Part shown: piece after piece, positions 4,124 to 18,449 of the stretch
How positions within the stretch are numbered: the first letter of the stretch is position 1
Layout of the letters: each line of letters opens with the position of its first letter
Translations under genes and position numbers: made by a program
Source of the DNA: an uncultured Chlamydiae bacterium
Lineage (GTDB): Bacteria > Chlamydiota > Chlamydiia > Chlamydiales > JAJFMA01
Reading direction: 5' to 3'
DNA: 64,000 bases
Assembly: GCA_963713615.1 (NCBI GenBank)
Contig: CAVQMM010000001.1
Span: 2,496,001-2,560,000, forward strand
Notes under the pieces: model-generated
Told to the model about the DNA's origin: nothing
The model's database searches: none
What the model saw: the letters and a program-made list of their open reading frames with translations, nothing else

Positions 4124-4255
4124 ATTGATCCCTCCTTTTTCTGCTATTCAAGGTTAAAACTATTTAACCTCAACTCATTCACAACCAATGAGAATAAGAT
4201 ACTACGCAAAAGTCAAATTTCGGCTACTTTGCCTATTTTGTCAAGTTCAAATATC

Positions 4256-4415
4256 GGCCTTGTTCACCTTTACGGTCAGAATTTCGGTCGGACGAAAAAG
4301 GTCGGATGTCGTGGTTTGTGACGAGGGCATAGCGCCAGCTATGTCCGAGGAGCAAAACGCGACAGACGATCCTTTTGCAGTCGACCGAAAACTGACCGCA
4401 AAGGTGAATAAGGCC
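4256..4415. mobile_element. 160-bp MITE family A, copy 1
   Basis: TIR GGCCTTGTTCACCTTTACGGTCAG / CTGACCGCAAAGGTGAATAAGGCC; 8-bp direct repeat CAAATATC at 4248-4255 and 4416-4423; identical to the copies at 41653 and 59383. Confidence 0.92.
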
Positions 4416-4424
4416 CAAATATCG

Positions 4425-4615
4425 GCCTCATCCGGTTTTGTAGGATTGGACTACACTGGCAGGCGTGAGCCCAAGAAATTCATGGATATGCATGATATTT
4501 AGGACACTCCAGAGAAGCCTCCAAACAGAACAGGTTCTCTTTTCCTTTTCTCCATTAATCATGTTCTTGGCTTACGTCTACCTGTGTAGTCAAGTCCTAC
4601 AAAACCGGATAAACT
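4425..4615. mobile_element. About 190-bp MITE-like palindromic element (family B)
   Basis: Imperfect long inverted repeat ATCCGGTTTTGTAGGATTGGACTACAC... / ...GTGTAGTCAAGTCCTACAAAACCGGAT; AAATATCG at 4417-4424 and 4616-4623. Confidence 0.7.
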
Positions 4616-4639
4616 AAATATCGATTTTAAATAAACTGC

Positions 4640-4668
4640 TTGCAAAAAAAGTGCCGCATGGTTACAAT
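4640..4668 (+). promoter_or_regulatory. Sigma70/sigma66-type promoter of the purH-his operon
   Basis: TTGCAA (4640-4645), 17-bp spacer, TACAAT (4663-4668), about 40 nt upstream of the leader ATG. Confidence 0.75.
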
Positions 4669-4708
4669 GTGGATTGATCAGACAAATAGTCTGGCTTGGA
4701 GGCCCTAA

Positions 4709-4798
4709 ATGCAATCATGCAAAATCAACAGTCTTGGTTCCTTCGTTCGCACGACCCTCCAGTCTTGCAGTCATCTCCATCATCACCATCATTGCTAA
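4709..4798 (+). CDS. hisL: Histidine-operon leader peptide, 29 aa (MQSCKINSLGSFVRTTLQSCSHLHHHHHC)
   Basis: GGAGG at 4698-4702, ATG 4709, CAT CTC CAT CAT CAC CAT CAT TGC TAA; lies between the promoter and the first gene of a his operon. Confidence 0.85.
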   Translation: MQSCKINSLGSFVRTTLQSCSHLHHHHHC

Positions 4799-4905
4799 TT
4801 TTTTTTGAGAAGTAAGCCGTTTGGCTTAACTTGTCACATGGCCGTCAAGTACAAATTTTGCTGACTAGTTAGGCCTATGGGACATCACTTCTCGACCCAT
4901 TTTTG
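4799..4905 (+). promoter_or_regulatory. Putative attenuator region downstream of the His leader
   Basis: T8 directly after the leader stop; hairpin TAAGCC-GTTT-GGCTTA (4813-4828); alternative pairing GAGAAGT (4807-4813) / ACTTCTC (4887-4893); weak ATGGG/CCCAT stem (4877-4900) followed by a T run. Confidence 0.45.
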
Positions 4906-4945
4906 CGTAACTACGTATTCAACTTTTTATTATCAAGGAATTGCC

Positions 4946-6395: not shown

Positions 6396-6695
6396 ATGGA
6401 TATTGATTTTGAAAAAGGTGGAGGCCTGGTTCCGGCTATCATCCAGGACTGCCACACCAAAACGGTTTTGATGCTCGGCTACATGAACGCCGAAGCCCTA
6501 GCCAAAACGCAGCAAGAAGATCGAGTGTGGTTCTTTAGCCGCTCGAAAAATCGGTTGTGGTTGAAAGGAGAGACCTCAGGGAACTTCCTAATATTAAAGC
6601 GCATTTGCGTAGATTGCGACAGAGATACCTTGCTTATCGAAGCAGAGCCTGTCGGAAATGTTTGTCACTTAGATAAGGAGTCGTGTTTCTCATGA
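6396..6695 (+). CDS. hisI: Phosphoribosyl-AMP cyclohydrolase
   Basis: FFSRSKNRLWLKGETSGN, DCDRD and CH..SCF motifs. Confidence 0.95.
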   Translation: MDIDFEKGGGLVPAIIQDCHTKTVLMLGYMNAEALAKTQQEDRVWFFSRSKNRLWLKGETSGNFLILKRICVDCDRDTLLIEAEPVGNVCHLDKESCFS

Positions 6696-7537
6696 TAAAA
6701 ATAGGATTACCAAATAAGGGAAGACTCAGTGAGCAGACGCTCGAGCTTCTCAATAAGGCAGGCTTCAAGGTCCTAGCTAAGGAGCGCAAGCTCTCCGCCC
6801 GATGTCAAAACTTCGACCTGGAAGTCATCTTCGTGCGCGCCAACAATATTCCCTCTTTTATTGCCGAAGGAATAATCGATCTCGGTATCACGGGCTTAGA
6901 TCTCGTTAAGGAACAGAACGTCGATATCGAAATGCTTCTTCCCCTAGACTTCGGCACTGCAGAACTCGTGCTAGCTGCGCCTAGAGGTTTCTCCATTGAA
7001 GACTTGTATAAGCGCAAGATTAGGATTGCCACTTCATTCCCAAATCTAACACGAGCCTTTTGCCAAGCGCAAGGGATCGAAGCTGACATCATAGAAATGT
7101 CTGGAGCCGTTGAGCTCGCCCCTAAACTTGATGTTGCCGATGCGATCGTTGACCTCACCACGTCGGGAGAAACGCTGCGCATGAATGATCTGGTACAGTT
7201 AATTAGTCTACTAGAGAGCCGAGCATGCCTGTTTGCCAGTAAGTCAAGAACCTGCAACGGTGCTGTAGACAAAATTGTTACGGCGTTTCAGTCTGTTCTG
7301 CTAGCCCACGAGAAGAAATTTCTCATCGCCAATGCCCCTAAGGCCTGCTTGCCAGAGCTGGTAAACATCGCCCCCGGATTGAGTGGGCCGACCTTCACCT
7401 CTATTCTAGGTAGAGACGATCTGTGTGCTATTCAGGTGGTCATTGATGAACGCCAAACGGCTGAGATCATCGACAAACTCAAAAAGCTAGGCGCTACCGG
7501 TATTCTCGTCACTAACGTCGAACAGGTGGTGCCTTGA
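6692..7537 (+). CDS. hisG: ATP phosphoribosyltransferase, long form
   Basis: PNKGRL, DLGITG, GAVELAP and DLTTSGETL motifs plus C-terminal regulatory domain; ATGA overlap with hisI. Confidence 0.95.
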   Translation: MIKIGLPNKGRLSEQTLELLNKAGFKVLAKERKLSARCQNFDLEVIFVRANNIPSFIAEGIIDLGITGLDLVKEQNVDIEMLLPLDFGTAELVLAAPRGFSIEDLYKRKIRIATSFPNLTRAFCQAQGIEADIIEMSGAVELAPKLDVADAIVDLTTSGETLRMNDLVQLISLLESRACLFASKSRTCNGAVDKIVTAFQSVLLAHEKKFLIANAPKACLPELVNIAPGLSGPTFTSILGRDDLCAIQVVIDERQTAEIIDKLKKLGATGILVTNVEQVVP

Positions 7538-7809
7538 TGTTTGAAGATTTAGAACAACTCATTAGTCAAAGACAAGCAGAAGGCGACTCTAAATCTTACA
7601 CCCAACGCCTGCTTACGGAGGGCAACCTGGTAGAACGCAAGGTTAACGAAGAGGCCTATGAGGTCATCGAAGCCGCGTTAACAGGCAATCGAGAGCAGAT
7701 TATCTATGAGACAGGGGATCTCCTGTATCACCTGTTTGTTTTGTTGAGAAAAAATAATATTACACTCGCTGAAATAGACCAGGAACTAAAAGGACGAAGA
7801 AAATCATGA
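7537..7809 (+). CDS. hisE: Phosphoribosyl-ATP pyrophosphatase
   Basis: SYT, KVNEEAYE and ETGDLLYH motifs; TGATG overlap with hisG. Confidence 0.93.
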   Translation: MFEDLEQLISQRQAEGDSKSYTQRLLTEGNLVERKVNEEAYEVIEAALTGNREQIIYETGDLLYHLFVLLRKNNITLAEIDQELKGRRKS

Positions 7810-9047
7810 AGATTGTCAAAGCAAACGAAGTGTCGCGAAGGTCAATAGATCTTCTAGAAGCTACCAAAGTAGTGATTCCTATTATCCAAGAAGTTAGGGA
7901 CCAAGGCGATGCTGCTCTACGTAAGTATGCGCAGCAATTTGATCGCCAGCAATTGGAACAGATCGTTGTCTCCAAAGCCCGCATAGAAGAGGCCAAACGC
8001 AACATTGATAGCAAACTCCTACAGGCCCTTAACACTGCCAAAACAAATATTGCGGCCTATCACAAAGCTCAACTGCCAAAAGACTGGATGATGTCAATTG
8101 CTCCTGGGATCACTGCTGGACAGCTGATACGCCCTATTTCGAAGGTGGGGTGCTATGTCCCTGGAGGACGCTATCCTCTTGTTTCTACTATTCTCATGAC
8201 AACTATAGTGGCACGAATAGCCGGTGTGGAACAGGTCATCGTGTGTACCCCGCGAGCAGTACCAGAGATCTTGGTCGCGTGCGATCTCGCCGGTGTCGAC
8301 CTCATTTGCGAAGTGGGCGGAGCCCAAGCTATCGCTGCTATGGCATACGGCACGGAAAGTGTTCCAAAGGTTGATAAGATCGTCGGTCCGGGAAATCGCT
8401 ATGTCACTGCCGCAAAAAAAGCCGTGTATGGCGATGTAGGCATTGATTTTCTGGCCGGACCCAGCGAAGTATTAGTCATCGCTGACGACAGCAGCAACCC
8501 AACCTATATAGCCGCAGACCTCATCGCCCAAGCCGAACACGACGACGATGCTATGGCGATTCTCGTGACTCCCTCACGCGCGCTAGCAGAGAAAGTCCTG
8601 GAGGCCCTCGAAGTACAGCTTGCTTCACTCCCAACAGCACAGACAGCTAGACGTTCCTTAGAACAAAATGGCATGATTGTACTAACAGATACACTAGATG
8701 AGGCTTTTGATGTCAGTAATCGTCTGGCTCCTGAACACTTAGAAATTCTTCTGGAGAACGTCGATGTATTGGATAAGATCAAAAGCGCCGCATCAGTATT
8801 TCTCGGAATGTATTCCGCTGAGGCCCTCGGTGACTACGCCACAGGTCCAAACCACGTGCTGCCAACGGGCGGAGTAGCTGCCTGGCAGTCGGGCCTAAAC
8901 ATTTATGATTTTATTAAGCAAATTACCGTGCAACAAGTGACTCCTGAAGGAATCCTTTCAGTGGGTGGTACAGTCTCAACATTGGCGCGCCTCGAAGGTC
9001 TCGAAGGTCACGCCCGCGCAGTACAAGTGAGGATGCAATCATGTTGA
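7806..9047 (+). CDS. hisD: Histidinol dehydrogenase
   Basis: YVPGG, GGAQAIAA, GPGNRYV, AGPSE, QAEH, APEHL and GPNHVLPT motifs. Confidence 0.96.
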   Translation: MKIVKANEVSRRSIDLLEATKVVIPIIQEVRDQGDAALRKYAQQFDRQQLEQIVVSKARIEEAKRNIDSKLLQALNTAKTNIAAYHKAQLPKDWMMSIAPGITAGQLIRPISKVGCYVPGGRYPLVSTILMTTIVARIAGVEQVIVCTPRAVPEILVACDLAGVDLICEVGGAQAIAAMAYGTESVPKVDKIVGPGNRYVTAAKKAVYGDVGIDFLAGPSEVLVIADDSSNPTYIAADLIAQAEHDDDAMAILVTPSRALAEKVLEALEVQLASLPTAQTARRSLEQNGMIVLTDTLDEAFDVSNRLAPEHLEILLENVDVLDKIKSAASVFLGMYSAEALGDYATGPNHVLPTGGVAAWQSGLNIYDFIKQITVQQVTPEGILSVGGTVSTLARLEGLEGHARAVQVRMQSC

Positions 9048-11266
9048 AGCCAAAAAATGCTGTGGTCAATCTGCCTATATATGCAGCGCCACCAGAAGGA
9101 CGCATGGGCTCTCTTCGGCTAGACTTTAACGAAAACACGCAAGGCGCCAGCCCCAAGGTCCTTGCGGCCTTAAGAGCCGTAACGGCTGCCGAATGCGGTT
9201 GCTATCCGGAGTATGACGAACTCAAAAAAGCTCTAGCGCGCTATCTAGGACTAGATACTGCCATGGTTCTACCCACCAATGGTAGTGATGAAGCCATCAA
9301 AATCGTCTTCGAGACTTTCGTTAGCAAGAACGACAAGGTCATTTTACTTACTCCAACTTTTTCAATGTATGAAGTCTATGCAACCCTAGCGGAAGCTAAT
9401 CAGGTGGTTATCCCATTTGCAGAATGTGACGATTTCGCCTACCCGGTCGAGGCCATCCTCAATGCCATTGACGGTGAAACGAAACTGGTTGTCCTGGCCA
9501 CTCCGAACAACCCTACAGGCTCAACGATCGCACGCGAAGACCTTATTCGCATCATCGAAAAAAATCCCAATACGGCGATTCTCATCGATGAGGCCTATGC
9601 AGCCTTTGCCAACTCAAGCTCCACTGACCTAGCCGCTAAATATAGCAATGTGCTTGTGACACAAACGTTTTCCAAAGACTTTGGTTTAGCAGGTTTGCGC
9701 ATCGCCTATTTGGTCTCACAAGCCGCCAATGTTCATTGGCTGAAACGTGTCATCAATCCCTATAGCGTCAATAGGTTCGCCGTTGTCGCCGCCATGGCAG
9801 CTCTTGAAGACCAGGCCTTTCTTAAACAGCATGTAGAAGAGGCCATCATGGCCCGAAACTTCTTTGCTTCTAAGATGGCAGAGCTGGGCTACAAAACATA
9901 TCCCTCGCAAGCAAACTTTCTGCTGGTCAATTTTGGCAAAGATGCAGAGGCTATCCTCGATCGTCTACGTAAGAGCAATATCCTCGTTCGCAATAAAAGC
10001 GGTCTCGTCAGGATCTCTTTTGGGAGTATCCAAGAGGCGCAACAGGTTCTGGAAGCCATCTCCGCACCGAAGACGGCCCTAATCTTCGATATGGATGGCG
10101 TCTTGGTCGATGATAGCCTGTCTTACTTAGAGTGTATCAAGAAAACAGTGGAACAACTGCTAGGCCAAAGCATAGACAACGCCGTAGTCAAAGCCGCCAA
10201 AGCTGGCGGAGGCTGTAACGACGACTATGACTGCGTCGCCAAAATATTGGCCGAAAACGGTAAGGTAGTCCCTCCAGAAACCATTGCTGAACTCTTTGAC
10301 GCCTACTACGAAACCTTCAAGTTTCAAGAAACATGGCTGATCGATGAAGCGATTCTAGCTAACCTACGCACAAAATATAGCTTAGGTATATGCACAGGAC
10401 GTCCTAAACGCGATGCGGTGGATGCCCTGCAACGGTTCAGCAAAACGCATGTCTTCGACATCGTGATTACCCGAGATGACGTTGACAAAGGAAAACCTGA
10501 TCCCGAGGGTTTAAATAAAATCCGCTCAACTCTAAACGCCACCAAAGCAATCTTCATTGGGGACAACCCCGATGACGCTTTGGCAGCCGAGAGGGCGGGC
10601 TATGCCTTCATCAAAGCAACTCCCTCAACACCTACTGCATGGCTGCTGGGAGAGATCAATCGTCTCATGAACCCCACTAAACGTGAAGCTTATATAGAAA
10701 GGCGGACCAAAGAAACAGACATCATCGCCAATCTAAACATCGACGGAATGGGCCAAGCATGCATCCAGACAGGTATTGGCTTCTTTGATCACATGCTCGA
10801 CGCCTTTACAAAACACGGTGGCTTTGACCTCAAAATTACCTGTCAGGGCGACCTACACATCGATCAGCACCACACCGTCGAGGATGTCGGTATCGTCCTG
10901 GGTGAAGCTTTTGCCAAAGCCCTGGGAGATAAGCGAGGCATTGCCCGCAGTGGATATTTTGTGTTTCCGATGGATGAAAGCCTAGCTATCTGTGCCCTCG
11001 ATCTATCCAATCGTCCGCACCTCACCTGCAATATAGAGGTTGGCGCACTGCGTATTGGAGACTTTGACACGTTGAATCTGTCCAATTTTTTCTCGGGGTT
11101 CGTGAAAGGTGCGCAAGTGAACTTGCACGTTCAGGTGCCCTATGGCATGGATCCACACCACAAGGTGGAGGCTCTCTTTAAGGCCTTTGGCAAAGCCCTA
11201 AGCATGGCCTGCACCCTAGATGCAACACGCACTGGCGTAATTCCTAGTACAAAAGGACTATTATGA
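9041..11266 (+). CDS. hisC/hisB: Trifunctional fusion: histidinol-phosphate aminotransferase (HisC) + HAD-IA phosphatase + imidazoleglycerol-phosphate dehydratase (HisB)
   Basis: PNNPTG, DEAY, TFSKDFGLAGLR (HisC); FDMDGVLVD, TGR, KPDP, GDNPDD (HAD); FFDHML, DQHHTVED, PMDE, HHKVE (IGPD); single open frame. Confidence 0.92.
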   Translation: MLKPKNAVVNLPIYAAPPEGRMGSLRLDFNENTQGASPKVLAALRAVTAAECGCYPEYDELKKALARYLGLDTAMVLPTNGSDEAIKIVFETFVSKNDKVILLTPTFSMYEVYATLAEANQVVIPFAECDDFAYPVEAILNAIDGETKLVVLATPNNPTGSTIAREDLIRIIEKNPNTAILIDEAYAAFANSSSTDLAAKYSNVLVTQTFSKDFGLAGLRIAYLVSQAANVHWLKRVINPYSVNRFAVVAAMAALEDQAFLKQHVEEAIMARNFFASKMAELGYKTYPSQANFLLVNFGKDAEAILDRLRKSNILVRNKSGLVRISFGSIQEAQQVLEAISAPKTALIFDMDGVLVDDSLSYLECIKKTVEQLLGQSIDNAVVKAAKAGGGCNDDYDCVAKILAENGKVVPPETIAELFDAYYETFKFQETWLIDEAILANLRTKYSLGICTGRPKRDAVDALQRFSKTHVFDIVITRDDVDKGKPDPEGLNKIRSTLNATKAIFIGDNPDDALAAERAGYAFIKATPSTPTAWLLGEINRLMNPTKREAYIERRTKETDIIANLNIDGMGQACIQTGIGFFDHMLDAFTKHGGFDLKITCQGDLHIDQHHTVEDVGIVLGEAFAKALGDKRGIARSGYFVFPMDESLAICALDLSNRPHLTCNIEVGALRIGDFDTLNLSNFFSGFVKGAQVNLHVQVPYGMDPHHKVEALFKAFGKALSMACTLDATRTGVIPSTKGLL

Positions 11267-11838
11267 AAACTGTAATCATAGACTGCGGCGGAGGAAATCT
11301 CCGCTCTGTAAAAAATGCCCTATACTACCTAGGAATCGCCAGCGAGATCACTGGTGACAGGAACAAGATTGAAAATGCCGACCGCGTGATCTTTCCCGGC
11401 CAGGGCAACTTTGGTACGGTCATGCAGCAGCTGGATCAGGCTAACCTGAAAGAGACCTTGCGCTTTTGCGCCCTAAATAGGCCATTTTTGGGAATATGCG
11501 TAGGCATGCAGCTGCTTCTAGAAGCGAGTGAAGAAGCTCCAGGTATTCCTGGTCTAGGCATTTTCTCCGGCAAGGTAAAGAAGTTCCCTAGTACATTCAA
11601 AACCCCACAAATGGGATGGAATAAAGTAGAGTTTGCCCAATCATCAGCCTACTTCTACTTTGCTAATTCCTACTATTGCAACGTCGAAGACTCCTCAGTG
11701 GTATGCGCGACAACGCACTATGGAGTAAATTTTCCCAGTGCATTAAGGCGAGGACAGCTACTTGCCGCGCAGTTTCACCCTGAAAAATCTGGAGAAGCTG
11801 GTTTGCGGTTTCTGGAAAGCTTTGTGAGGAACACATGA
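11263..11838 (+). CDS. hisH: Imidazole glycerol phosphate synthase, glutaminase subunit
   Basis: GNLRSV, LGICVGMQ and QFHPEKS motifs. Confidence 0.95.
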   Translation: MKTVIIDCGGGNLRSVKNALYYLGIASEITGDRNKIENADRVIFPGQGNFGTVMQQLDQANLKETLRFCALNRPFLGICVGMQLLLEASEEAPGIPGLGIFSGKVKKFPSTFKTPQMGWNKVEFAQSSAYFYFANSYYCNVEDSSVVCATTHYGVNFPSALRRGQLLAAQFHPEKSGEAGLRFLESFVRNT

Positions 11839-12587
11839 TAACAAAACGCATCATCCCCTGCCTAGACGTGGATAAGGGCAGGGTCGTCAAAGGCAAGCAA
11901 TTCATAGAAATCCAGGATGCCGGCGATCCCGTCCAGCTGGCTAAGCTATATGCCAATCAAGGCGCCGATGAAGTCGTCATCTTGGACATCACAGCATCCC
12001 TGGAAGCGCGTGGCACATTCCTACATACTGTTGAGGCAGTATGCAAAAAACTGTTCGTCCCCCTCACAGTTGGTGGTGGTGTGCGAACCGTAGCTGATAT
12101 GCGCAAGCTACTCATGGCTGGAGCAGACAAGATCGCTATTAACAGCGCCGCGATTGCAGACCCAAAAATCATCAGTGAAGCGGCTGACATGTTCGGCTCA
12201 CAATGCATCGTTATTGCTATGGATGTGAAAAGAACCTCCTCGGGCTGGACAGTCTACTCCCATGGTGGCACACGCCCCACAGACCTTGACGCACTAGAAT
12301 GGGCTCTGCGCACTCAGGAACTCGGTGCGGGTGAAATTCTCCTCACCTCAATCGACCGCGATGGCACCAGAAGTGGTTATGACATTGAGCTCTTGCAGTG
12401 TGCAGTGAGTAGACTAAAAATCCCCGTCATCGCCTCTGGAGGCGTGGGGAAATGGGAAGACATCCGCGATGCCTTTCTACTTGGCAATGCTGACGCGGCC
12501 CTCATGGCCTCTATTGTACACTTTGGAGAGATGACTATCCCTCAAATAAAAACACTATTAAAAGACTCTGGAGTATCGGTAAGGTGA
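11835..12587 (+). CDS. hisF: Imidazole glycerol phosphate synthase, cyclase subunit
   Basis: KRIIPCLDV, GEILLTSIDRDG and IASGG motifs. Confidence 0.96.
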   Translation: MITKRIIPCLDVDKGRVVKGKQFIEIQDAGDPVQLAKLYANQGADEVVILDITASLEARGTFLHTVEAVCKKLFVPLTVGGGVRTVADMRKLLMAGADKIAINSAAIADPKIISEAADMFGSQCIVIAMDVKRTSSGWTVYSHGGTRPTDLDALEWALRTQELGAGEILLTSIDRDGTRSGYDIELLQCAVSRLKIPVIASGGVGKWEDIRDAFLLGNADAALMASIVHFGEMTIPQIKTLLKDSGVSVR

Positions 12588-12591
12588 TATC

Positions 12592-13302
12592 ATGATCTAT
12601 CCTAGTATTGACCTCATGAATGGAAAGGCTGTGCAGCTTGTCCAGGGAAAAAAGGAAAATAAGAAGCTTGAAATCGATGATGTCTTCGGCCTCGCAGATA
12701 AATTTTCGCAGCTTGGCCACATCAACGTGATCGATCTCGATGCAGCTTTTGGCAATGGTGACAACAGACAATTAATCCAAAGGTTAGCAGCCAAATACCC
12801 CATACGTGTTGGGGGAGGCATTCGCTCGGTTGACATTGCTAAAGCATATATCGAGGCGGGTACTGAGAAGATTATCATCGGCAGTGCTGCTTTTCAGAAG
12901 AATCGTGTCAATAGCGAATTTTTGAGTGCATTACGTGATCGTATTAAGCGTGAGCAGATTATTATTGCTCTAGACTCCTATCAGAAGGCCGTGGTCACAA
13001 AGGGCTGGACGGAGACGACAACACTGGATGCCGCGGAGATTATCAAGAGTCTCGAAGAGTATTGTGGAGAGTACCTGTACACACAAGTAGACAAAGAAGG
13101 AATGATGCAAGGCACGAACGTGGAACGCATCGTCGCATTGAAGGCTCTAACGAGTAATCAGCTTACCGCAGCTGGTGGCATTTCCACAGTAGAAGAGATC
13201 CAGGAACTATGGTCTCATGGCATCTACAGCGTACTTGGTATGGCCCTGTATACCGAGAAGCTCCCTTTTGAAACGTTGATGAAAATAAAGCATTCCAAGT
13301 AA
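12592..13302 (+). CDS. hisA: ProFAR isomerase
   Basis: IYPSIDL..GKAVQL.QG, IDLDAA and VGGGIR motifs. Confidence 0.92.
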   Translation: MIYPSIDLMNGKAVQLVQGKKENKKLEIDDVFGLADKFSQLGHINVIDLDAAFGNGDNRQLIQRLAAKYPIRVGGGIRSVDIAKAYIEAGTEKIIIGSAAFQKNRVNSEFLSALRDRIKREQIIIALDSYQKAVVTKGWTETTTLDAAEIIKSLEEYCGEYLYTQVDKEGMMQGTNVERIVALKALTSNQLTAAGGISTVEEIQELWSHGIYSVLGMALYTEKLPFETLMKIKHSK

Positions 13303-13832: not shown

Positions 13833-16800
13833 TTAATGTGTCTCTCTTAACTGGTTAACAACCGACACAAAAGTGCTAGGGATTGTTTCCGCTAAGGTGA
13901 GAATTGTCACACCGATTAGAAGGCGCATACGATCCGGAGGGCTTAAATTTTTCTCGCGACACGCATTGGCAACAACGTCTCGGCACCGAAATAACGCCTG
14001 CGTTAAGGCCAACAGATCAACAGGTGTAAAGCCTGCAAGAAGCTGCACAAACCAGGCCGCTGGTTGTTGCACGTTTAACCTCGTCCATTGCACTAGTAGC
14101 GTATCGGACACTTTTTGCCGACACTCATCATCTAACCATCTAATGATGTGTTTTTTGCAATCGTCAGTCACCTGAGCTAAGTCATCCATGGAAAGAGCTG
14201 ACTCACTGAGTGTCAAATAGGATTCCAGTATCGGTAGTATATGCCTAGAATCAGCCAAGGAGGCAAAGTGAGCCAATATTCCCACCACACGGAAGAATAG
14301 ACCTGCAAAACTTTCAGCGGATATCTTATCGCCTAAATATGTTTCCTTAAACTGCGCATTGACGGTATCACCTATCGACATCACGTTCGTCTGAAACTCA
14401 TCATTAAGAAGTCCGCACGCAAGCATGCTGCTGTCGAGATGTATGGTTCCCTCTTCCGGGATTTCAAACGCTTGAGCCAGCTGCTGTCTTAAGGCCATCA
14501 AGGGTCCATGTTCTGCTAAAAGCCTAGGGACAGGAGGGGCTCGAAATAGAAACCAATGGTTTTGCACAACCGCCTCTAATCCCAGGAGTAGCATCTGCCG
14601 AGCCTGGGATTGTACCTTCCTCTGAACCTCTTTATCTTGCTCATTCCAGGGGGTGAGTATTTCAGCCCACTCTTTTGTCTTTCGTTTGTCAGCTTCGATA
14701 TGGGAAGACTGCATGCGAAACACGTGAGCCGACAGACGGCGTTGCATTTCCAAGCTTATCTGCGGACAGGCTAGCATACTAATCCCATCTAATGGAGGGA
14801 GATCTCCGCGATTGAGAAGACGATTAACACCTTCATCCGTTACTTGACTATCGATAAGCTCGATCACACGTAGCTTCGGGAGTGTAGCCAAGAGTCCCAC
14901 CTCAGCGTCATTCACTCCGCCTGCGTCCTTCAAGTGAACCTCCTGCAGCTCTTTACAGTAGTAGACGAGTCTTTCCATACCAACATGAGTCAGCCCCTGA
15001 CACCTTCTAAGGTCTAGACTGGTAAGTCTTTGACAACCCTTTGCAAGCTTTGAAAGATCCTGGTCCGGACCAAAACGACATTCTGCACGGAGACGCACCA
15101 GGCCAGGACAGTGCTTAGCAAGTGCGACAACGTCATCTGTAAATAGACTGGTGAAATTGTCCGTCATACCTGTACTCCATAGAGCCGTCATGCTTGGGCA
15201 TGCTTCAGCAATAGGTTTTATCTTGAATCTGCCCGCTAAAGTTAGGCGCACCTGTAAGCCTACAGGACAGTTAGACAGGAAGAGAAGTTCACGAGCCGTC
15301 GGTTTAAAAGCCCGCCAAGCATATCCTGTCCTCTCTAAGCGCACATCTACAGCCTCAAAGTCAGGCCATGAAGGACGGAGCTCACTGACATCAAGGCTTG
15401 CAAAAGGAGCTTCTGTATGATGCTCCGAGAGCTTTAGGGTAACCGCCAACCGTTGCAATTTGTGCAATTTGGCGAGATACTTCCATCCTTGTCCATCCAC
15501 CAGAGGGCACTCTCCGTCTAATGTCAACTCAGTGAGTTGTGGATAACTGGTTACCAGACGGCAAATTTCCTCATTAGTGAGGGCACGACAGGCCGTCGTA
15601 TCTAGGCGCAGAGCTGGCAATTGAACAGGCAGGGCATGCGGAAGCAATCCCAAGGAGGGATTATCCGCCGGGACCACCATCTGTGCTAACTCATGCGGAT
15701 CCACTACGAATGGTTGTGGAGGAGGGACAAGGTTCTTGAGTACGACGGGCCTAATTTTCTGCGCAGCTCGTCTACAACAGGCAGCACCAACACCAGCCCC
15801 TAGGACTGTAGCAGACAATAGGGTTATCCCGACCGCTGAGGTGTCCACTACTCTGGACATTGTTGGTATAACCGAAATCACTGCATTAAGAGCTTCTCCC
15901 GTGTAACCACCAGCGGTTTCAATAGCAGCTATGGTTTGCTGATATAGCAACCCATTAGATCCAGTCATAAAATACACGACTCTCTCCAAAGCCGTCGAGG
16001 CAGTGGCTCGCGTCACACTGAAAACACTGTTAATATCGATTGATCCGATCGCACCAGCCAGCCTCTCATAGGCAACTGACCCATAGGGCACGTAAGAGAA
16101 TGCCGTTGAGGCAGCTAATACTGCGACGTCTTTCATCATGGATAAGCCACTTCTAGTTGTATCACGATAGAGATACGCCGACGTAGCTCCAATCGCACCA
16201 AACAAGGTTAGCCCCGTCCCACGGGCAATTCTAATGGCTCGATCCTTACTTATCTGATCAAACAACGCCTTACGCCAGGTGCGAGGGGGTAGAGGAGGCT
16301 GCTCAGCCCAGTATTTGAGTGTAGCTTCTTTCCATTGACCTCTTAGCTCATGCAAAATACCTTGCAACTCTGGGTGTGCAGCAACCTTAGCATGGTCCAA
16401 TTCAATGATCTTTAGGCGTCCGTCTGAAAGTATATTGATCCTGATGATTCCAGCGTATTGCTTAGACAATGTTTTCACGGAGGCTCGAAGCAGGTGGGGC
16501 ATATCCCGTTCTCTTGCGATCTGAAGAAGAATGAGCATATTGTCAGCTTGATCTGCCTGACCGATCAAATAGTTCTCAAAACGCTTTTGAAAGTGTCTAC
16601 AACCAAAATAGTCAACCGATGCCAAAAGATGTCCCACCTGCTCGACTGTCAAACCCTCCAAGCTCACCGATTCGGTTCGCATCCACTCTTGCGCGGCTTG
16701 CAGTTTTTCAACTGAAATATCTCTTAGCACAATGGCCTCATCAGGAATTTTACCCTTATCTGCCTCTACGAATCTCCCCTCTAGCATGCGGTGTAGCATA

Positions 16801-18449
16801 GTGGATCTCGCCATGCAGATAAAACGACTACAGGCGATTATAGGGTAAATGCGCATCGTTTTAAGATTAATTTCGCCACCTTCATCATCGATTGTGGCCA
16901 CGGCAAACTGATTACACCAAGTAACTAAGGCCTTTTGCCAAGGAGCTGCCTCTTCTGAAAGCGCCTCGCAGCTGGTTTTTAGGCCTTGAAAACATGCTAA
17001 CAACCTCTTGTCTTCTAAAGTCTTCGCTTTGATTAATAAGCTTTGCAACAGCAAAATTTGCTGTTCAAGACTAAGAGTTGCAACATGTTGCTCAAAAGTC
17101 TCGTCGTCTGAGTCTTCATCTATCTCTGGAAGATCGGCCAACTCGAGTTCGTTGGATAGTCTTCCCACAGTCTCGTCAAAGCTCTTACAAAAATCACCTG
17201 GAGTCACCTCTGAATCTGGTAGAGCAAAATAGACCTTTTCCTCTTCAAGAATCTGCAGTAATGTTTGGTCCCTGCCCGCAATGCGAAGGACCCATTCGGC
17301 ATCTTCCTCGCCTAGATCCCCGTTAAGATAGCTTCGTTGCAATGCTCTCAGGATAGGAGGAAGGAGCGTTCGGTACTCTTGGTTCGGGCTGGACACAATA
17401 TAGAGGAAAAAACTGAAGAGATTCAGGGACCGTTTTGTCAAATCTTTTTGAAAGTCCTGCTCAAGCATCCAGTGCCAGTTGTCATCTAAGTCAGCGCGTT
17501 GGCCGACTAAATAAGCCGCTAGCTGTTCACAGTTGTCAAGTTCAGCACGCTTCTGATCATCGGTTTTTTGGCCCCAACGCCTAGCCAACAGCTCAGGATC
17601 TAAGGTTTGAGGACTCTCAGTACTCCTTTCTTCCAGCAGTACCTTGTCGAAAAACGTTCTCTGGGACGCATCAAAAACACAAGGAAATGGCATCGGTGGC
17701 ATCTTTTGAATAGCCATTCCCCCTAAGATCTGTTGCGTCTTTTCAAGACCAGGTAAGCTAAAGAGCCGAAGTAATAAGTCTTTGCGATTTCGCAGTTCAG
17801 TAGAGAGTGGTATTTTTTGTATCTTTGCCTTAGCGCCTCTTAATAAATTCCAACCCTTTGCAACACTAAGAGCAGCTTCCGGGAGCTGCAACATCTCGCA
17901 GAAGGCTGCATCACATGCTTTCAAAATGCTCGGCATCTCTTGCTGCTTGGACAGCTCAGCAAGCTGTAACAGCGCCTCTACCTCAGCTAATGTAATGGGA
18001 GCTGGTAGGGCTTCGCCGTGCAAGAATGCGCTAATGCGCTCCATCTGTGCGTAAGAAATATCGGAAAGAGAAATAGGTTCTTCAGAGGGCTCTTCAGCAT
18101 ATTTGCTGGCTGCGACAAGCGCAGAAAATTTAGGCGATAGACAGGCCAGCATAAAGCTGTTAACCTGAAGCTCCTTCCCTTCTACGATTATTGTGAGATC
18201 TTTTTCGCACTGACCAAGATTCCGATGGCAAACTCGCGTTGCTTGTAGGATAGCCTCCATATCAACCGGAGACAGCTCACGCCCTTGTAACAGAGTCTGT
18301 ACTTCCTGTTTGATCTCACTAAGTTCCTGAAAAAGGCCTGCAACAACTGACTGTTGTGAAAGCTCTTCTATGCGCGTTACAATCGGATTTTGTTGATATA
18401 TATCATTAACACCAAAATCAATAATATTTATATTATTAAAATTATCCAT
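13833..18449 (-). CDS. Large effector-like protein: two BTB/POZ-like domains, hydrophobic segments and leucine-rich repeats
   Basis: DLTIIVEGKELQVNSFMLACLSPKF and ACSRFICMARSTMLHRML...IVLRDIS (BTB-like); CQRLTSLDLRRCQGLT-type Cys-containing LRRs; Asn/Ile-rich N-terminus. Confidence 0.75.
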   Translation of the reverse strand: MDNFNNINIIDFGVNDIYQQNPIVTRIEELSQQSVVAGLFQELSEIKQEVQTLLQGRELSPVDMEAILQATRVCHRNLGQCEKDLTIIVEGKELQVNSFMLACLSPKFSALVAASKYAEEPSEEPISLSDISYAQMERISAFLHGEALPAPITLAEVEALLQLAELSKQQEMPSILKACDAAFCEMLQLPEAALSVAKGWNLLRGAKAKIQKIPLSTELRNRKDLLLRLFSLPGLEKTQQILGGMAIQKMPPMPFPCVFDASQRTFFDKVLLEERSTESPQTLDPELLARRWGQKTDDQKRAELDNCEQLAAYLVGQRADLDDNWHWMLEQDFQKDLTKRSLNLFSFFLYIVSSPNQEYRTLLPPILRALQRSYLNGDLGEEDAEWVLRIAGRDQTLLQILEEEKVYFALPDSEVTPGDFCKSFDETVGRLSNELELADLPEIDEDSDDETFEQHVATLSLEQQILLLQSLLIKAKTLEDKRLLACFQGLKTSCEALSEEAAPWQKALVTWCNQFAVATIDDEGGEINLKTMRIYPIIACSRFICMARSTMLHRMLEGRFVEADKGKIPDEAIVLRDISVEKLQAAQEWMRTESVSLEGLTVEQVGHLLASVDYFGCRHFQKRFENYLIGQADQADNMLILLQIARERDMPHLLRASVKTLSKQYAGIIRINILSDGRLKIIELDHAKVAAHPELQGILHELRGQWKEATLKYWAEQPPLPPRTWRKALFDQISKDRAIRIARGTGLTLFGAIGATSAYLYRDTTRSGLSMMKDVAVLAASTAFSYVPYGSVAYERLAGAIGSIDINSVFSVTRATASTALERVVYFMTGSNGLLYQQTIAAIETAGGYTGEALNAVISVIPTMSRVVDTSAVGITLLSATVLGAGVGAACCRRAAQKIRPVVLKNLVPPPQPFVVDPHELAQMVVPADNPSLGLLPHALPVQLPALRLDTTACRALTNEEICRLVTSYPQLTELTLDGECPLVDGQGWKYLAKLHKLQRLAVTLKLSEHHTEAPFASLDVSELRPSWPDFEAVDVRLERTGYAWRAFKPTARELLFLSNCPVGLQVRLTLAGRFKIKPIAEACPSMTALWSTGMTDNFTSLFTDDVVALAKHCPGLVRLRAECRFGPDQDLSKLAKGCQRLTSLDLRRCQGLTHVGMERLVYYCKELQEVHLKDAGGVNDAEVGLLATLPKLRVIELIDSQVTDEGVNRLLNRGDLPPLDGISMLACPQISLEMQRRLSAHVFRMQSSHIEADKRKTKEWAEILTPWNEQDKEVQRKVQSQARQMLLLGLEAVVQNHWFLFRAPPVPRLLAEHGPLMALRQQLAQAFEIPEEGTIHLDSSMLACGLLNDEFQTNVMSIGDTVNAQFKETYLGDKISAESFAGLFFRVVGILAHFASLADSRHILPILESYLTLSESALSMDDLAQVTDDCKKHIIRWLDDECRQKVSDTLLVQWTRLNVQQPAAWFVQLLAGFTPVDLLALTQALFRCRDVVANACREKNLSPPDRMRLLIGVTILTLAETIPSTFVSVVNQLRETH

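Follow-up and report, generated by a model that had tools for sequence, protein, structure and literature searches.

The window, the whole 64,000-nucleotide stretch of chlamydial DNA analysed here, carries a histidine biosynthesis operon headed by purH, and between a sigma-70-type promoter and purH lies a short open reading frame (ORF) that closes with a run of His codons (Table 1). The order of the his genes is the same in 4/4 relatives whose operons are fully covered. In the window hisC, a HAD phosphatase and hisB are joined in a triple fusion (9041-11266, 741 aa), an arrangement that P0002-P0004 share. Six other proteins align to almost the full length of the fusion at 44-63% identity, while hisB is a separate gene in four related chlamydial operons. 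In the relative G451 (locus L106) hisG and hisE seem split across frames, reflecting either sequencing error or operon decay. Beyond the operon, on the reverse strand (13833-18449), the window encodes a 1538-aa protein with BTB/POZ domains and apparent leucine-rich repeats, which is eukaryote-like and of environmental-chlamydial type.

HisFH releases AICAR, and PurH converts AICAR to IMP. Searches of the genome, which is 99% complete, detected neither purM nor purC and gave only sub-cut-off matches for purF; purH is thus read as the AICAR-disposal enzyme of the histidine pathway, of which it is likely a part, recycling the by-product to IMP. The sequence-only reading of this DNA had seen here a purine gene placed under histidine control, a description that does not survive the gene content of the genome. 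Similarly purM is missing in 3/5 relatives checked, and the other two keep a second purH that has no leader. None of the 80 HisD loci from other phyla, which are 41-55% identical, has purH within the flanks examined. The purH-first operon illustrates how the histidine pathway can operate without de novo purine synthesis.

Table 1. Elements of the His leader and the purH-his operon, and three further leaders of the same genome. Positions are those of the window unless a contig is given.
Feature	Position	Strand	Basis and remarks
Sigma-70-type promoter TTGCAA-17-TACAAT	4640..4668 (TTGCAA 4640-4645; TACAAT 4663-4668)	+	Sequence
Small 5' hairpin, upstream of leader ribosome-binding site	4678..4694	+	Predicted
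Leader Shine-Dalgarno (SD) GGAGG	4698..4702	+	Sequence; relatives likewise purine-rich and SD-like here
His leader ORF, 29 codons, MQSCKINSLGSFVRTTLQSCSHLHHHHHC-TAA	4709..4798	+	Sequence; 29-46-codon counterparts in seven other leaders
Control codons His-Leu-His5, one Cys codon, TAA	4772..4798 (six His codons 4772-4792)	+	Sequence
C-rich, G-poor, YC-rich segment in ORF: candidate Rho loading (rut) site	4736..4795	+	Composition; putative function
T8 directly past leader stop; possible pause element	4799..4806	+	Sequence; U-rich stretch also follows stop in relatives
Hairpin H, -13.7 kcal/mol, not followed by a U tract	4806..4836	+	Predicted; likely pause hairpin or rut-free boundary
Weak hairpin ATGGG/CCCAT + UUUU, -3.5 kcal/mol	4877..4904	+	Predicted; not conserved in relatives
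purH Shine-Dalgarno AAGGA + start codon	4935..4948	+	7/7 aligned homologues start MKKA
purH, sole copy found in genome	4946..6385	+	
hisI, hisG, hisE, hisD, hisC-HAD-hisB fusion, hisH, hisF, hisA	6396..13302	+	
Trp-Trp leader, 41 codons	G000:C1:1016773-1016898 (L125 474-599)		Overlaps end of trpR-like gene; 96 nt before trpD
Arg-ended leader, 35 codons	G000:C1:1774327-1774434 (L126 428-535)		Promoter TTGACA-18-TATAAT; before amino-acid ABC transporter (artJ) + argG
Thr-rich leader, 30 codons	G000:C1:1773870-1773778	-	149 nt before thrA-like gene; divergent from Arg operon

The promoter, the leader Shine-Dalgarno, the ORF and the T8 tract all lie where the sequence-only reading had placed them. 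By itself the promoter match could be a chance hit (1 found vs 1.6 expected); a TAYAAT box is positioned 37-46 nt before the leader ATG in 7/7 aligned leaders, a similar box is present in the leader of locus L121, and transcription would start near 4675. A counterpart of the small 5' hairpin is predicted in 8/8 leaders at -5.0 to -10.2 kcal/mol, with differing sequences, in folds of the native leaders. The Shine-Dalgarno and the conservation of the ORF suggest that it is translated. The spacer, which had been put at about 140 nt, is present and measures 147 nt from the leader stop to the purH ATG. The leader had also been described as C-rich and G-poor, a description that fits the ORF's 3' half (C 0.38, G 0.15) but not the spacer (C 0.20, G 0.18).

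A tail of this kind is rare in the genome, where at least five His in the last 12 residues occur in 33 of 362,564 stop-to-stop segments and five-codon His runs at 8 places. Among 745 intergenic SD-led short ORFs the leader ORF ranks first for tail His, with six in its last ten residues and three in the next-ranking ORFs. The leader itself is single-copy (BLAST). An assembly error is unlikely because a contig of the public run X4, which may be the window's own source, is identical to 4631-4886 with no differing letter. The single RNA run holds only contigs that fall within purH and hisE-hisD, outside the leader. Pfam gave no match for the four leader peptides tested, and the folding of the whole leader is not clearly special (z -1.67). 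Just 5' of the promoter, at ~4240-4620, lie repeated elements (170 and 57 genome BLAST matches for two stretches tested), and the 104-aa ORF at 4188-4502 is unlikely to be a real gene. An in-frame upstream ATG at 4877 (4877-4945) would extend PurH by 23 residues, with three His in the first eight codons, and was not seen in relatives. This ATG was rejected as a regulated purH start, since the change on stalling amounts to only 0.8 kcal/mol and the homologues begin at MKKA.

The search for His-rich upstream ORFs before the his operons of related genomes, which had been proposed as a check, found them in seven further leaders, and this conservation settles that the leader is real. The set comprises the leaders of the window, G271, G393, G119, G286, G408, G451 and L121, locus L117 being left out as a duplicate of G286, and five of the eight are close kin, which leaves approximately four independent lineages. 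The layout of promoter, 29-46-codon ORF, His run and hairpin just past the stop is displayed by 8/8 of these distinct purH-his leaders. Each SD-led ORF holds 4-8 His codons, ends 90-147 nt before purH and is closed in 8/8 cases by the His run, a Ser or Cys codon and TAA. Across lineages the leader peptides have in common only the His run and Ser/Phe/Ile/Leu-rich, pyrimidine-rich codons, not the peptide sequence, and no conserved arrest-peptide motif binding a ligand was found among the aligned leader peptides. A short His-rich ORF was found at 0/17 chlamydial purH loci of the other type. The proposal of a His-sensing leader thus gains comparative support from the conserved His-run ORF, and anatomy and conservation together make His sensing by a stalled ribosome very likely.

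The operon occurs in few genomes. HisD was found in 5/401 genomes of the phylum sample, and three genomes of the same genus are not among the five. Family searches with purH added two purH-his operons, and a metagenome motif scan yielded seven loci, comprising one new leader, one duplicate and five purH genes for which the covered sequence shows neither a leader nor his genes. An order-wide search with HisG (399 genomes scored; G044 unscored) returned no further genome. The metagenome loci L118 and L122, with no his genes in their covered sequence, carry a close purH homologue whose ~150 nt upstream are GC-rich and possibly structured, with no His leader and no Rfam match; in L118 hisI is absent from the ~100 nt available downstream of purH.

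The His leader does not display the architecture of a classical attenuator. Rfam models of the His leader (His_leader, RF00514), the ZTP riboswitch and the T-box gave no match (the window searched to E 10 and 10 loci at gathering score). The best hairpin followed by a U tract reaches only -3.5 kcal/mol in the window, and the seven other leaders have either none or one of -4.2 to -12.5 kcal/mol with 2-4 GC pairs, whereas the same script detects hairpins with U tracts of -13.0 to -26.1 kcal/mol and 4-11 GC pairs in 9/9 non-chlamydial His leaders. The earlier observation that a strong GC stem with a U-tract terminator is missing is thereby borne out. Strong-terminator His leaders were observed in Calditrichaceae, an Actinomycetota bin and two Acidobacteriaceae genomes (L028, L040, L048 and L080).

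Hairpin H begins 6-12 nt past the stop in 8/8 leaders. In folds of the first 50 nt its stability spans -8.5 to -13.7 kcal/mol, the window leader providing the most stable value and the seven others ranging from -8.5 to -13.3 kcal/mol, and its sequence differs between lineages. This stability is matched by at most 5/300 shuffles in seven leaders (5/300 in the window) and by 20/300 in G119. A U-rich tail is positioned directly behind H only in G271, where the modelled H could terminate by itself. H sits where an antiterminator would, without a strong partner. The competing pairings that the sequence-only reading had noted in the spacer are indeed predicted in the window, where the loop of the 4877-4904 hairpin (4887-4893) can pair alternatively with 4807-4813, but they are weak and not conserved. 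Covering stretches of the window leader changes its predicted fold, and the change is not conserved in relatives.

The 3' part of the leader ORF has an unusual composition. Rut sites are unstructured stretches with more C than G (PMC9426467, PMC12360218), and rut-likeness is here a matter of composition and predicted folding, assessed by rules from E. coli and Bordetella. Over its final 60 nt the ORF shows a C-G excess of 14-21 and 15-22 YC, which places these segments in the top 0.5% of background windows in 8/8 leaders on a score that was defined after viewing these leaders and to which the His codons, G-free by nature, contribute. In the window the segment 4736-4795 has C-G = 14 and 17 YC and is matched by 0.28% of genome windows. 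The nine non-chlamydial control His leaders contain 2-9 YC in their last 60 nt, and in the eight chlamydial leaders the 60 nt past the stop have a C-G of -5 to +4. Self-folding of the last 60 nt is predicted at 0 to -0.3 kcal/mol in 7/8 leaders, the exception being the window at -6.0 kcal/mol, whose leader, judged by this folding and by its G content (0.15), resembles a rut site less than the other seven do.

The bias is not confined to the His codons, since silent positions are pyrimidine-rich too. In the last 20 codons of the eight leaders 66/78 four-fold silent positions are pyrimidines and two are G; earlier in the same ORFs 31/65 are pyrimidines and 12 are G, and the background is 53-58% pyrimidine. 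Counting one leader per lineage gives 33/37 pyrimidines, and the window contributes 8/9. This pyrimidine bias at silent sites shows that selection acts on the RNA. The gene for Rho is present in this genome and in 5/5 relatives, and Rho polarity in chlamydiae has a precedent in PMC7755916.

In an out-of-sample check, ranking the 745 short ORFs by this same score places a Trp leader second, an Arg leader eighth and the His leader ninth; the rank-7 ORF, located before a sulfate-binding gene, looks repeat-derived and was set aside. Downstream of the Trp leader, trpD is followed by four ORFs resembling trpC, trpF, trpB and trpA. Counterparts of this leader occur in G001, G046, G047, G056 and G339 and are absent in G177 and G012, and Trp-Trp leaders are present in 6/8 trpR-trpD loci (among 30 trpD loci fetched; 71 genomes matched, G044 unscored). 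In the Trp leaders 48/64 silent sites are pyrimidines, the C excess within the ORF is weak (C-G of 0-8 in relatives) and the Trp codons form a small GC hairpin. The G046 leader and the C. felis peptide printed in PMC3937554 differ at a single residue; G046 is one of the genomes marked as belonging to the same order, and the match supports reading the window's source as a Chlamydiales relative.

Arg leaders precede 6/6 artJ-argG loci, those of the window genome and five others, a count that excludes three further argG loci of other gene context and the unscored genome G044. Their silent positions are pyrimidines in 48/55 cases, a hairpin with U tract stronger than -7 kcal/mol is found in only one of the six, and in 5/6 the Arg run touches the stop codon. 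With the run touching the stop, the position of the ribosome barely differs between fed and starved cells, which leaves no room for a positional switch; where the control codons touch the stop, the difference between the two states is ribosome dwell time. The Thr-rich leader has another design, with its Thr run in mid-ORF, strong hairpins, no obvious U tract and a C-G of 2, so that not all leaders of the genome are of the C-rich type. Elsewhere in this genome the filter retained no leader near pheA, the search for leuA was negative and two ilvB-like matches fell below the cut-off.

Taken together, the conserved leader is likely a His-sensing attenuator in which termination by Rho would depend on how long the ribosome dwells and not on a hairpin switch, and loading of Rho inside the vacated ORF is, with modest confidence, the favoured OFF step. 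A Rho-type mechanism, which the sequence-only reading had raised as one option, gains comparative support from these data. When little tRNA-His is charged, the ribosome would stall on the His run, as expected from known hisL biology. The last 60 nt of the ORF, including the His codons, would constitute an unstructured C-rich loading site, and the stalled ribosome would cover its 3' part and keep Rho from RNA polymerase. The RNA past the stop being folded and C-poor, the operon would then be transcribed during the stall. When histidine is plentiful the ribosome would terminate and leave, allowing Rho to load and to stop the polymerase, which may pause at H or in the U-rich spacer. For several relatives, pairing between the vacated His/stop segment and the purH start is predicted as a second lock, which would give Rho more time to act.

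A more tentative proposal, possible rather than probable, is that these leaders represent an "occupancy" class of attenuators in Chlamydiota, in which the control codons are placed against the stop and inside a Rho loading site selected down to its silent positions. As parts of this one proposal, and equally tentative, a single ribosome would both gauge charged tRNA and mask the terminator; the CAU/CAC run would serve as sensor, as Rho-binding repeat and, in some lineages, as anti-start strand; and the Arg and Trp operons would share the design, which would explain why chlamydial trpL peptides show no recognisable attenuator hairpins.

The predicted pairing with the purH start also suits translational attenuation, in which the vacated His/stop segment would pair with the purH Shine-Dalgarno and AUG, H would bring the two together, a stalled ribosome would free the start site and Rho would act only as later polarity. 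Stalling is predicted to lower the opening energy of the purH start by 2.8-8.4 kcal/mol in 5/7 relatives (G393, G286, G408, G451 and L121), and in four of these five leaders 0/25 shuffles reach such a change. A perfect 10-bp duplex connects the His/stop segment with the purH start in G408, a compensatory C-G/U-A pair distinguishes G393 from L121 in the same duplex register, and the layout is that of mycobacterial Ms5788A (10.1101/834739). However, no start-site switch is predicted in the window (-0.01) or in G119, and the change in G271 is only 0.7. The window duplex, at only -5.2, is weaker than 87% of those at 600 other SD-bearing starts, and only G408 clearly beats unrelated starts (1.3%). 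The switch is also missing from 6/6 Arg leaders and 4/6 Trp leaders, and translational attenuation offers no explanation for the silent-site bias in the codons that precede the His run. It is considered an unlikely account of the leader as a whole, and the predicted pairing between control codons and start is read as a second lock in some lineages. A classical positional switch acting through a weak, perhaps NusA-assisted, intrinsic terminator appears more doubtful still. Here H or the 4807-4813:4887-4893 pairing would be the antiterminator, a ribosome at the stop would melt it, and 4877-4904 or 4820-4863 would terminate. The start of H, 6-12 nt past the stop, can be reached by a terminating ribosome in 8/8 leaders, and the predicted fold of the window leader shifts with the stretch that is covered. 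Yet the terminator candidates have only -3.5 and -4.5 kcal/mol, against -13 to -26 kcal/mol in the nine control leaders, no equivalent terminator recurs in relatives at a corresponding position or with a similar sequence, a ribosome footprint extending 10-13 nt beyond the stop spares the upper stem of H, and the sibling Arg leaders allow no such switch.

Least probable of all are a peptide that is itself the effector, as a metal-binding His tail or an arrest peptide, a control of mRNA decay, and a functionless leftover. In their favour, metal binding is a known property of His tails, nucleases might attack a bare C/U-rich 5' region, and the operon is patchy, with hisD in 5/401 genomes and hisG and hisE looking frameshifted in G451. 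Against these possibilities, the lineages share no peptide beyond the His run and its pyrimidine-rich codons, the leader is tied to his operons, the codons in the sibling leaders, Trp or Arg, are those of the amino acid concerned, and the silent-site bias shows that the RNA is under selection. The pyrimidine richness could instead serve pairing of the segment preceding the His run with the leader's own Shine-Dalgarno, which is seen in minimum-energy folds; this pairing beats shuffles at the 5% level in only 1-2/8 leaders and is not supported. Frameshifting or read-through into purH was rejected, as the spacers fall in all three frames and every shifted frame stops 10-71 nt past the leader stop in 8/8 leaders.

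Chlamydiae encode few transcription factors and draw on the amino acids of their hosts. In one genome a conserved type of leader that lacks a terminator and bears a measurable rut-like signature recurs for His, Arg and Trp, and offers one testable mechanism for all three. If true, this mechanism would join charged-tRNA sensing and Rho masking, which are usually kept apart, and terminator-based screens would miss leaders of this type. The literature search, in which coverage of subscription journals was thin and supplements lay outside, found no chlamydial His leader and no purH-his operon, in agreement with the sequence-only reading, which knew of no described His leader in Chlamydiota. PMC4833913 and PMC13236596 contribute nothing on this leader. 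Attenuator surveys reportedly published by Vitreschak et al. in 2004 and Lopatovskaya et al. in 2010 could bear on the novelty of the chlamydial His leader.

Among known systems, terminator-bearing His leaders have been reported from proteobacteria and predicted for Firmicutes (PMC9413887 and PMC2965389), and the available portion of PMC9413887 contains no mention of chlamydiae. Like enterobacterial hisL (RF00514) and the Firmicutes candidates, the chlamydial leader is a short ORF with tandem His codons located before a his operon, and it would likewise sense charged tRNA-His. Unlike hisL, it matches no Rfam model and lacks a GC-rich terminator followed by a U tract, its operon is headed by purH, its ORF is longer (29-46 codons) with a selected C-rich 3' half, and its His run lies one codon from the stop.

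Actinobacterial Cys-run leaders, for which a role of Rho is proposed, weakly, in PMC1262725, resemble the chlamydial leader in that the ORF closes with its control codons, the spacer measures ~100 nt and a terminator is missing. Pairing between control codons and the Shine-Dalgarno, a further likeness, is here predicted in 5/7 relatives; for Ms5788A translational control is shown (10.1101/834739). The Cys-run leaders are leaderless and GC-rich, form a very stable duplex and concern another amino acid and another phylum, and the window is without such pairing. The chlamydial trpL belongs to the same bacterial order, displays tandem control codons near the stop and has its counterpart in the trpR-leader-trpD arrangement of the window genome. 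It is represented by the C. felis peptide (PMC3937554) and by the unvalidated C. trachomatis TrpL (PMC7755916), and the sections of these sources at hand report no attenuator structure and state the function of chlamydial trpL-like ORFs as an outstanding question. Unlike the His codons, for which this is impossible, the Trp codons of trpL form a small GC hairpin.

Masking of Rho by a ribosome on an upstream ORF has been shown for tnaC, speFL and cruR, all of them ligand-arrest systems (PMC9426467, PMC12360218). As in Bordetella cruR and E. coli tnaC and speFL, the ribosome held at the end of the upstream ORF is proposed to shield an unstructured site with more C than G from Rho, and in cruR the rut site lies inside the ORF and is shielded by the stalled ribosome (PMC9426467), as proposed for the chlamydial His leader. 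In contrast to these systems, which rely on an arrest peptide and a small-molecule ligand, the stall would here result from a shortage of charged tRNA at ordinary codons. These control codons would themselves contribute to the loading site, and the operon that follows is a biosynthetic one. His leaders and the masking of Rho by upstream ORFs are each already known, and what appears to be new here is a terminator-less, rut-like His leader. This leader very likely senses like hisL and probably has an OFF step like that of cruR, and by defining features it is a member of neither family.
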